Assembly (NCBI GenBank): GCA_008632985.1
Contig: QPGO01000170.1
Span: 62,001 to 126,000, forward strand
From: Psammoneis japonica
Taxonomy: Eukaryota
DNA: 64,000 nt
Direction of reading: 5' to 3'
The notes beneath the pieces are model-generated. The model saw only the letters and a list, made by a program, of their open reading frames with translations. It did no database searches and was not told where the DNA came from. Made by a program: the position numbers and the translations under genes. Positions 21,260 through 21,724 of this stretch are shown piece after piece (position 1 is the first letter of the stretch; each line of letters opens with the position of its first letter).

Positions 21260-21293
21260 AGGGTAGAATTTTTGGTTCCGAAAATTCTACCCT
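21260..21293. promoter_or_regulatory. Perfect 13-8-13 inverted repeat, candidate recombinase binding/crossover site
   Basis: AGGGTAGAATTTT-TGGTTCCG-AAAATTCTACCCT. Confidence 0.6.
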
Positions 21294-21724
21294 CCCTTCT
21301 ACCTGGGTAGAAAAGACAAAGGATGTACGGTAGAATTTTTATTGAGTACGTTTACAATATCAACACTTCTACATACGATAATTCCACTTTTCAGTAGAAA
21401 AATACTACTTGGGTAGAATTTTGGGTGTAACGGTACAGTATGTATTGGCCCGGTACGACAACAAGAGATTACAGTAAAGTATCATATTTTACTTTGTTCA
21501 TGCCGGTATAACTGTAGATGTCCAACGGAAAACAACGGAAATAATCAACGGAAACGGCGAAATTCGCGACCACTCGCGCGTCAACTGTACGATACATACG
21601 GTACCGCTCTGCTGACTGCTGATCCAGGATCCAGGATACCGTGATTCCGTTCTGTACCGTATGGGATGTGTGATGTTGATCGTGTTCCCGTGTTCAATGT
21701 TGTCAATGTCATCGAGAAGAGAAC

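Follow-up and report, generated by a model that had tools for sequence, protein, structure and literature searches.

The locus described here raises the question of whether a perfect palindrome lying beside a decayed recombinase gene is the crossover site of that recombinase, comparable to loxP and FRT, or a part of some other arrangement of DNA signals. It is located in contig QPGO01000170.1 of Psammoneis japonica (assembly GCA_008632985.1), of which positions 62,001 to 126,000 of the forward strand have been analysed; this stretch of 64,000 nucleotides is referred to as the window and all positions are numbered within it. The gene is similar to those of Cryptons, the least understood class of eukaryotic DNA transposons. 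Based on sequence comparisons, the palindrome and the additional half-sites around it are considered, with moderate confidence, to form a subterminal protein-binding array. The transposon to which it would belong is a CryptonF-like element with a tyrosine recombinase, about 2.5 kb long and on the minus strand, and the array lies at its left (5') end. Such an array would give a first look at the DNA signals of Cryptons.

A palindrome and additional half-sites upstream of the gene

Positions 21260-21293 read AGGGTAGAATTTT-TGGTTCCG-AAAATTCTACCCT, with perfect inverted arms of 13 nt and a spacer of 8 nt, which agrees with the two inverted arms of 11-13 bp and the spacer of 6-8 bp typical of loxP and FRT. 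The palindrome begins 117 nt upstream of the ATG (21141-21143) of an open reading frame (ORF) on the minus strand, close to the distance of about 120 bp given in a first-pass annotation of the same letters. The further half-sites named there have also been identified, namely TTCTACCTGGGTAGAA, CGGTAGAATTTT (coordinates in Table 1) and GGGTAGAATTTT at 21411-21422.

Allowing at most one mismatch, GGGTAGAATTTT has four matches in the 64 kb, all of them in 21261-21422, where 0.17 are expected and none of 100 shuffled sequences reaches four. The stretch 21171-21418 holds seven of the 13 window copies of GGTAGAA and nine of the 34 copies of GTAGAA, and the motif is no general promoter word of the window. 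The window has three places with perfect inverted arms of 13 nt separated by 0-20 nt; 40 simulated sequences have none. The palindrome and the extra GGTAGAA half-sites are real and lie far beyond chance. Two further perfect long inverted repeats, at 42634-42672 (16 nt with a loop of 5 nt) and 40684-40726 (13 nt with 17 nt between the arms), are unrelated in sequence to the GGTAGAA sites.

The spacer had been described as asymmetric. TGGTTCCG does differ from its own reverse complement, yet the repeat extends to arms of 16 nt with a single mismatch around a centre of 2 nt, so that the spacer is hardly asymmetric. In the orientation of the gene, the stretch 21260-21312 reads TTCTACC-2-GGTAGAA-5-GGTAGAA-16-TTCTACC (figures denote nucleotides between sites), and the palindrome is the inner pair of this internal block of four sites. 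The whole array fills the 287 bp (21144-21430) between the ATG and the predicted end of the element.

Domain organisation and decay of the Crypton-like gene

The gene encodes, in this order, an N-terminal Cys-rich zinc finger (20895-21143), a Pro-rich linker and a part of 667 residues with a recombinase core and a C-terminal GCR1_C domain. The motifs IARLDD, THSTRK, RARWK and QDKC have been recognised in the core. The GCR1_C domain (PF12550) expected at the C-terminus of a CryptonF protein is detected in the window copy with an E-value of 2.7e-5 (24.8 bits, cut-off 23), and the match to Znf_SCAND3 scores 24.7 bits, under its cut-off of 27. Sixteen relatives of the protein have been identified, with a best identity of 61%, and the zinc finger is fused in front in two of them as well (P0006 and P0008). 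GCR1_C is detected in 14 of the 17 aligned members and in all seven further lineage representatives, including the most distant ones (E-values up to 0.018, four reaching the Pfam cut-off). One distant member (L018) has weak, sub-threshold matches of coiled-coil type between the core and GCR1_C.

The relatives keep the columns R193, H307, R310, W333 and Y343, and the tyrosine is present in all 16. An hhalign comparison with Cre of phage P1 spans 211 columns and brings R, HxxR, W and Y into line with the catalytic residues of Cre, at a probability of only 12%. The nearest Atlas clusters carry Phage_integrase, NDC10_II, NDC10_II+GCR1_C and DUF3504. The recombinase gene is the only gene of the element, with neither a reverse transcriptase nor a transposase: repeat units of the relatives measure 2.2-3.3 kb and have one ORF, and in the window the Crypton stop is followed after at most about 100 nt by a further gene-like repeat region. 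These features fit a CryptonF-like transposon, though the sequence evidence for the recombinase fold is weak and the window copy is without the tyrosine. The neighbouring gene is thus of the Crypton type proposed in the first-pass annotation, and the motif is tied to this gene family.

The copy in the window is a dead, one-ended relic. An in-frame TGA separates the zinc finger from the core and a cysteine stands in place of Tyr343, and the locus therefore is no working recombinase/site pair. All nine columns with tyrosine in at least 75% of the relatives are altered (four to cysteine, two each to histidine and phenylalanine, one to tryptophan), compared to 13 of the 151 other conserved columns. 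A tblastn search of the 64-kb window for other copies of the ORF finds the ORF alone.

The observed/expected ratio of the dinucleotide TA is 0.14 in the ORF (17 TA in 2004 nt) and 0.85 in 21144-21430 (21 TA in 287 nt). The earlier remark that the TA-containing motif is intact despite the erosion of the ORF is correct as a description. It does not demonstrate selection on the motif, since the flank outside the element (21431-21726) is equally normal at 0.91.

Poverty in TA is also seen elsewhere in the window. Blocks with ratios of 0.02-0.15 and TA-free runs of up to 1629 nt have been identified at 1-10000, 18000-20000, 26000-28000 and 36000-44000, with an excess of TG and CA and, in some of them, a depletion of CG as well (0.15-0.35). 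Genes adjoining these blocks have TA at 0.4-0.6. All nine conserved tyrosines of the Crypton ORF, encoded by TAY codons, are replaced. The loss looks like a TA-directed mutation process acting on some classes of sequences; we know of no described process of such kind.

Conservation of the site array in related elements

Metagenome contigs scanned with the protein alignment have yielded 56 loci. Distant relatives with the same site architecture share 26-42% protein identity with the window protein, and in none of the 56 loci is there any non-coding nucleotide similarity to the window. Exact GGTAGAA clusters upstream of the ORF have been identified in two other families, F1 (L008, L009 and L026) and F2 (L010); within 270 nt of the ORF, L008 and L026 have seven copies each, L009 five and L010 two. 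In further families the same place is occupied by one-base variants, among them TGGAAT. GGTGGAA or GTGGAAT is found in L005, L007, L013, L015, L016, L022, L019, L034 and L027/L039, GGTTGTA in L011 and L018, GGTTTAA in L024 and GGGTGGAATTTTTGG in L042. The motif is thus conserved at other Crypton copies, with A, G or T as the variable base according to the lineage.

In L009 the sites ahead of the ORF are GGTAGAA, and those past the right end are GGTTGAA. The lineage-specific variants and the two types of site on this one contig suggest a recognition that is specific to the element rather than host-wide. The composite AAATTCTACC-N-AAGTAGTATTT found at the left end of the L008 family is near-identical in the window. 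On the protein tree the type of site requires 8 changes against 12.1 in shuffles (none of 200 as low), and the A-type requires two; as kin share their site labels, this clustering is no proof of co-evolution. Residues covarying with the type of site have also been sought. Four columns, all of them outside GCR1_C, distinguish A-type lineages from G-type lineages; they are all shared with the sister lineage L024, so the columns track descent and not specificity. Pattern scans of the sets viral_contigs (two patterns) and genome_contigs gave no matches. In a short tandem array rich in GGTTGGTAGAAAGGT downstream of L035 (3360-3830), all exact copies of GGTAGAA have the direct orientation; this array is probably a satellite and not a site array.

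Maps of the sites have been computed from the end of the element to the ATG. In the window, L008, L016, L005 and L007, position 13 counted from the end is the start of the first half-site. The distance from the last half-site of the same orientation to the ATG is 27 nt in the window, and 56, 0, 7 and 12 nt in L008, L016, L024 and L005 respectively. The internal block has the order inverted, direct, direct, inverted in the window, L008 and L024, with spacings of 2, 5 and 16 in the window, 13, 16 and 2 in L008, and 1, 5, [6] and 0 in L024. A pair of heptamers 16 nt apart is also present in family F3, where the spacing was counted by hand. In the end composite TTC-N-ACC-N3-GT-N'-GTA both variable bases change together, being T/A in the window and F1 and C/G in F3, L019, L034 and L005, with L007 as an exception.

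Ends, joints and likely target of the elements

Copies in different flanks locate the exchange point at the end of the element. In family F3 a unit of roughly 2.4-2.5 kb is associated with four left flanks (L015, L016, L022 and L040) and three right flanks (L016, L022 and L053), and occurs in tandem in L012 and L013. With ^ denoting the joint, the left joint reads (C)CG^TTAGATACAAAT-TTCCACC, the right joint ...GGTGGAA-CGGAC-GGTGGTA-18 nt-CCG^GTA(C/T)A and the tandem joint ...CTTCCG^TTAGATAC. CCG is thus found at all three, as a short direct repeat unaccompanied by long terminal repeats. Five contexts have been aligned in family F1, all with the same core. L008, L014 and L026 carry both sides; in L009 the left side is unchanged and the right one replaced, and in L024 (reverse strand) it is the left one that is replaced, next to an unchanged right side. 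The F1 joint, ...GGCACA^TTATTGAC, lies inside a 7-9-7 inverted repeat (GTCAATA-N9-TATTGAC) flanked by GGTAGAA and TTCTACC. The F3 flanks and the swapped F1 flanks place copies in different surroundings, in agreement with mobility of these elements.

The trinucleotide at the exchange point is CCG or ACA, followed by TTA, and lies 12 nt outside the outermost half-site. Facing heptamers are 33 nt apart across the joint in F1, F3 and L007. The right end has two direct half-sites with a spacing of 5 nt next to the mapped joints in F1 and F3, 21 nt from the joint. Exchange within a spacer, as known for loxP and FRT, does not agree with these breakpoints.

Among 224,442 bases the end pattern NNN^TTA-N9/10-heptamer-N2/3-GTNGTA is matched 19 times, compared to 0.28 times on average and never more than 2 in 100 simulations. 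The matches come from eight of the 19 families with 150 nt or more of 5' sequence, apart from one probably spurious match inside the ORF of L056 and one match in the window, at 21430. The stricter form NNN^TTA-N9-heptamer-N3-GTNGTA has a single match in the whole window, at 21430, where the text is ...ACTGTACCG^TTACACCCAAAA-TTCTACC-CAA-GTAGTA. Both CCG^TTA and the distance of 12 nt are the same as in F3, F4 and L023, and by this analogy the left end of the window copy is predicted at 21430/21431, with CCG as the exchange trinucleotide. The predicted end lies 137-170 bp from the palindrome.

Right flanks begin with GTAC, which points to GTACCG^GTAC as the likely target. The window has a 12-nt palindrome matching such a target, TGTACCGGTACA, at 53814-53825; this is the only occurrence of GTACCGGTAC in the window and may be an empty insertion site. 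Palindromes of the form GTACC(W)GGTAC are clustered in the 3' parts or flanks of L007 (2720-2760), L008 (2550-2700) and L024 (2475-2840), and may be target-like sequences or footprints.

Tandem arrays and read depth

L008 contains two diverged head-to-tail copies; their ORFs are 71-73% identical, and in their site regions a piece of 52 nt reaches 96% identity. L042 is a circular or tandem contig, having an exact terminal overlap of 124 nt and a unit of 2208 bp. In L005, L007, L013 and L035 the first 113-200 nt are repeated after the ORF with 86-89% identity. Broken copies are many; the first copy of L008, L010, L034 and L045, for example, have short longest frames.

Read depth has been obtained from X1, the one public sequencing run identified as containing this DNA, of which contigs at least 80% alike to the window were compared over 16500-24500. 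The summed depth is 52-55 in the flank (21573-24500), 155-228 over the ORF and 575-717 over 21039-21572, and 10-11 different contigs carry other letters at 21069-21075; such deeper, differing contigs indicate that similar sequences occur several times, and the depth is not a copy number. One or two contigs, with a summed depth of 575-604, differ from the window at 21291, 21292 and 21294, where the right arm of the palindrome ends on its outer side. One exact contig covers 21101-21421, and the next starts at 21407 and continues into unique sequence; this break inside the end composite would be expected of a word common to several copies. Another contig joins 21111 to 21363, and loose ends are seen at 21025, 21151 and 21254. 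X2 and X3, two runs of the same sample, gave no contig on the ORF or the site region, and no RNA run is listed for this DNA; this has no bearing on expression.

Proposed mechanism

The protein of the element itself may bind the half-sites, of the form GGGT(A)GAATTTT, through its C-terminal GCR1_C domain, the N-terminal part of the recombinase or both. The pairing of half-sites suggests binding as a dimer or a higher oligomer. The outermost inverted pair, at its fixed distance of 12 nt from the end, would bring the catalytic domain to the point of exchange, CCG^TTA. Excision would yield a circle, in which 33 nt separate the right end, with its two direct half-sites, from the left end facing it, and the circle would re-enter at palindromes similar to GTACCG^GTAC or beside resident copies, resulting in head-to-tail arrays. 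The 13-8-13 palindrome is potentially the strongest dimer site of the internal block between end and promoter, and this block most likely helps the assembly of the recombination complex, controls the promoter of the element, or both. The palindrome itself may be an accessory, a regulatory or a second recombination site. The proposal of a cognate site is thus supported in the form of a putative binding array of the element's own; in that of a loxP-like crossover site it is unsupported, exchange in the relatives being mapped to the end of the element.

A number of observations weigh against this reading. Profile searches of Pfam and PDB gave no significant recombinase match, and the PHROG integrase families were matched weakly (E-values of 0.037 and 0.065 only). 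For the strict motif GGTNGAA, at least three copies of one variant are found in the 5' region of three of 19 families against none of 19 coding controls, and at least two copies in six of 19 against two of 19 coding controls of the same length; 29 of the 56 loci, whose 5' sequence is shorter than 150 nt or whose match starts late, stand outside this count. The array was not recognised in F5 (apart from one palindrome), F8, L045, L052 and L055, and L025 has a different repeat in its place. The closest relative, L001 (61%), is without 5' sequence, and its 3' region contains CCATTTC/GAAATGG palindromes and not GGTAGAA. The end pattern and the family groupings were defined after the data had been seen, raw counts run too high where contigs are near-identical, and repeats are places where metagenome contigs can be chimeric. 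The window has one copy, and its end at 21430 rests on analogy and on the contig break. No direct pair of half-sites, CCGGTA or GTAC joint marks a right end after the stop codon. The decayed inverted versions of the motif reported for the far end could not be recovered either: no GTAGAA or GTAGTA site occurs from the stop codon at 18888 down to 15800, the sole nearby one (18941) being inside the ORF.

Alternative explanations

The arrangement that gave rise to the question, a recombination target of FRT type, would make the internal block including the palindrome (two direct arms and one inverted) a site by which the recombinase resolves multimers, brings about inversion or integrates circles into resident copies. 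Its geometry fits in the perfect arms of 13 nt and the spacer of 8 nt, and a third, direct half-site lies 5 nt away; the native FRT site also has a third repeat. The direct pair with 5-nt spacing beside the mapped joints at the right ends of F1 and F3, the recurrence of the 16-nt heptamer spacing in F3, and the tandem arrays with the circular or tandem contig are also in its favour. Identical internal sites could recombine and no breakpoint would show, which makes the comparison of swapped flanks blind to such an event. Every breakpoint that has been mapped lies at an end of an element, though, and none in the internal block. The inner pair is spaced differently from lineage to lineage (16 in the window, 2 in L008, 0 in L024), whereas a crossover region needs a fixed spacing. 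The near-palindromic spacer would give no direction, and the high-depth X1 contig departs from the palindrome at three positions of its right arm. A target of FRT type is accordingly regarded as unlikely. Comparably doubtful, and by a little the less probable of the two, is a purely transcriptional role of the sites, such as auto-regulation through GCR1_C with no part in recombination. The sites overlap the likely promoter, a further point against the binding array of a recombinase preferred above, as they fit this role too: the array fills the space from end to ATG, with its last site 0-56 nt before the ATG. GCR1_C takes its name from the DNA-binding domain of the yeast activator Gcr1, which recognises CWTCC boxes according to the available part of PMC7826247, and the TTCC within the G-type half-site bears a weak likeness to them. 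There is no obvious promoter-related reason for an outermost site fixed at 12 nt from the mapped end in five families, or for half-sites at the right end, 21 nt from the joint.

That the cluster is a separate short repeat, a MITE or some other element, lying by chance beside the recombinase gene is held to be very unlikely. The summed depth over 21039-21572, several-fold above that of the ORF, can be read in this sense and is, again, a point against the array as a part of the Crypton, although it also fits short derivatives lacking the ORF; a contig of depth about 575 overlaps the palindrome in part and has three changes there. The array has the same position and orientation relative to the ORF in several independent families of other origin, which argues against a chance neighbour, and ORF-less Crypton derivatives that keep their ends, such as CryptonI-1N1_RPro, are described in the part of PMC3212892 available and would explain the depth. 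Hardly any credit is given to a chance palindrome, or to a hairpin acting only as a DNA or RNA structure. The single DNA strand folds well, at -12 kcal/mol (z = -4.3). The counts are far above chance, there are also single half-sites and half-sites in direct orientation, at variable spacing, and an Rfam scan of 21000-21800 gave no family reaching threshold.

Comparison with known systems

The CryptonF elements of fungi and oomycetes encode a tyrosine recombinase with GCR1_C, and Crypton boundaries, with terminal repeats of only 4-6 bp, are hard to define (Kojima and Jurka 2011, PMC3212892, as far as available). The elements considered here resemble them, as described there, in their single ORF with a recombinase core followed by GCR1_C, their small size, the absence of long terminal inverted or direct repeats, the very short repeat at both ends (CCG in place of 4-6 bp), taken as the exchange substrate, and a low to moderate copy number with many decayed copies. 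They differ from the described CryptonF in the ordered array of half-sites of 7-12 nt at the left end with two direct half-sites at the right end, in the N-terminal zinc finger of some members (the window protein, P0006 and P0008) and in the head-to-tail arrays. Internal or subterminal binding sites are not described in the available part of that paper. A CryptonA study of 2026 (PMC13465315), in the part available, likewise finds the ends hard to define and names no recombinase-binding sites; the terms 'binding site', 'palindrom' and 'recombination site' do not occur there. A search of the accessible literature returned no description of such a site architecture in Cryptons.

The likeness to Cre/loxP and Flp/FRT is confined to the inverted arms of 13 nt around a spacer of 8 nt beside a recombinase gene and to the third direct arm known from native FRT. 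Unlike in these systems, the exchange points of the relatives lie elsewhere, the spacing differs between lineages, the spacer is nearly symmetric, half-sites number nine or more as against two or three, and the sequence likeness to Cre is marginal. Integrases of lambda type, with their arm-type and core-type sites, and the hAT, CACTA and P elements have many short sites near the ends, in both orientations, that are apart from the cleavage point and read by a non-catalytic DNA-binding domain. The arrays may share this working principle, no homology being claimed, and the inner 7-9-7 inverted repeat at the F1 joint, flanked by GGTAGAA sites, is reminiscent of lambda-type integrases. Yeast Gcr1 belongs to the same GCR1_C family and binds the CT box CWTCC, according to the part of PMC7826247 available. 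The G-type half-site agrees with four of its five bases, in one variant only, whereas the A-type site of the window reads TTCTACC, and the likeness serves as a lead only.

The ordered array with its fixed end distances, the lineage-specific variants and the candidate target palindrome provide testable hypotheses on where the protein binds and cuts and how its specificity is set. Yeast transcription factors with GCR1_C are thought to be derived from Cryptons, and the arrays link this domain to a possible ancestral role in the recognition of transposon ends. Intact relatives with their own sites, of the L008 and L016 types (ORFs of 713 and 642 residues), are candidate site-specific recombination tools for eukaryotic cells. 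It is conceivable, though rather improbable in our estimate, that the elements are naturally occurring recombinase/site pairs of eukaryotes whose specificity can be re-programmed. In a deeply conserved half-site of 12-15 nt (GGGT-N-GAATTTT), one position would be switched between A, G and T from lineage to lineage, always in all the sites of an element together, so that elements could lie side by side with no cross-talk. Small circles and head-to-tail arrays would enter palindromes of the GTACCGGTAC type, and the 13-8-13 block would be an FRT-like second site that resolves or amplifies the arrays.

Features of the window and neighbouring sequences

Table 1. Coordinates of the Crypton-like element and its putative signals in the window
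Feature	Position	Strand	Basis or remark
Crypton-like pseudogene, one reading frame	18888..21143	-	Translation, GCR1_C match, 16 relatives
TGC (Cys343) at the catalytic tyrosine position	19863..19865	-	Alignment; Tyr in all 16 relatives
In-frame TGA between zinc finger and recombinase core	20892..20894	-	Translation
ATG-proximal half-site GGTAGAA (gene orientation TTCTACC)	21171..21177	+	27 nt before ATG
13-8-13 palindrome, GGTAGAA-16 nt-TTCTACC; inner half of the internal four-site block	21260..21293	.	Counts, simulation, site map
TTCTACCTGGGTAGAA, inverted pair TTCTACC-TG-GGTAGAA; rest of the internal block	21297..21312	.	Site map
Half-site CGGTAGAATTTT	21328..21339	+	Sequence match
Two weaker cores: TTCTAC 21367-21372, GTAGAA 21394-21399	21367..21399	.	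Sequence match
Terminal composite TACTAC-TTG-GGTAGAA (gene orientation TTCTACC-CAA-GTAGTA)	21403..21418	.	Near-identical in L008 family
12 terminal nucleotides TTACACCCAAAA (gene orientation); predicted left end at 21430	21419..21430	-	End pattern, site distance, contig break
CCG (gene orientation), predicted exchange trinucleotide, first flank bases	21431..21433	-	Analogy with F3, F4, L023
Flank with GTACCG-type words (target-like half GTACCG)	21434..21460	.	Word scan

A plus-strand gene encoding a Cys-rich protein (21727-24804) adjoins the element, and a diverged copy of it is located about 9 kb away (12758-13690), with 77-87% identity over short stretches. A contig of run X2 skips 21927-22003 with GT..AG ends, as a spliced form would. 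The region after the Crypton stop (15864-18800) is made up of repeats. The stretch 15864-16540 recurs at 17599-18275 (98.8%), 16538-16963 is found inverted at 17173-17598 (97%), and units of about 180 bp with exon-like ends are arranged in tandem in 17873-18778. One X1 contig joins 18229 to 18890.

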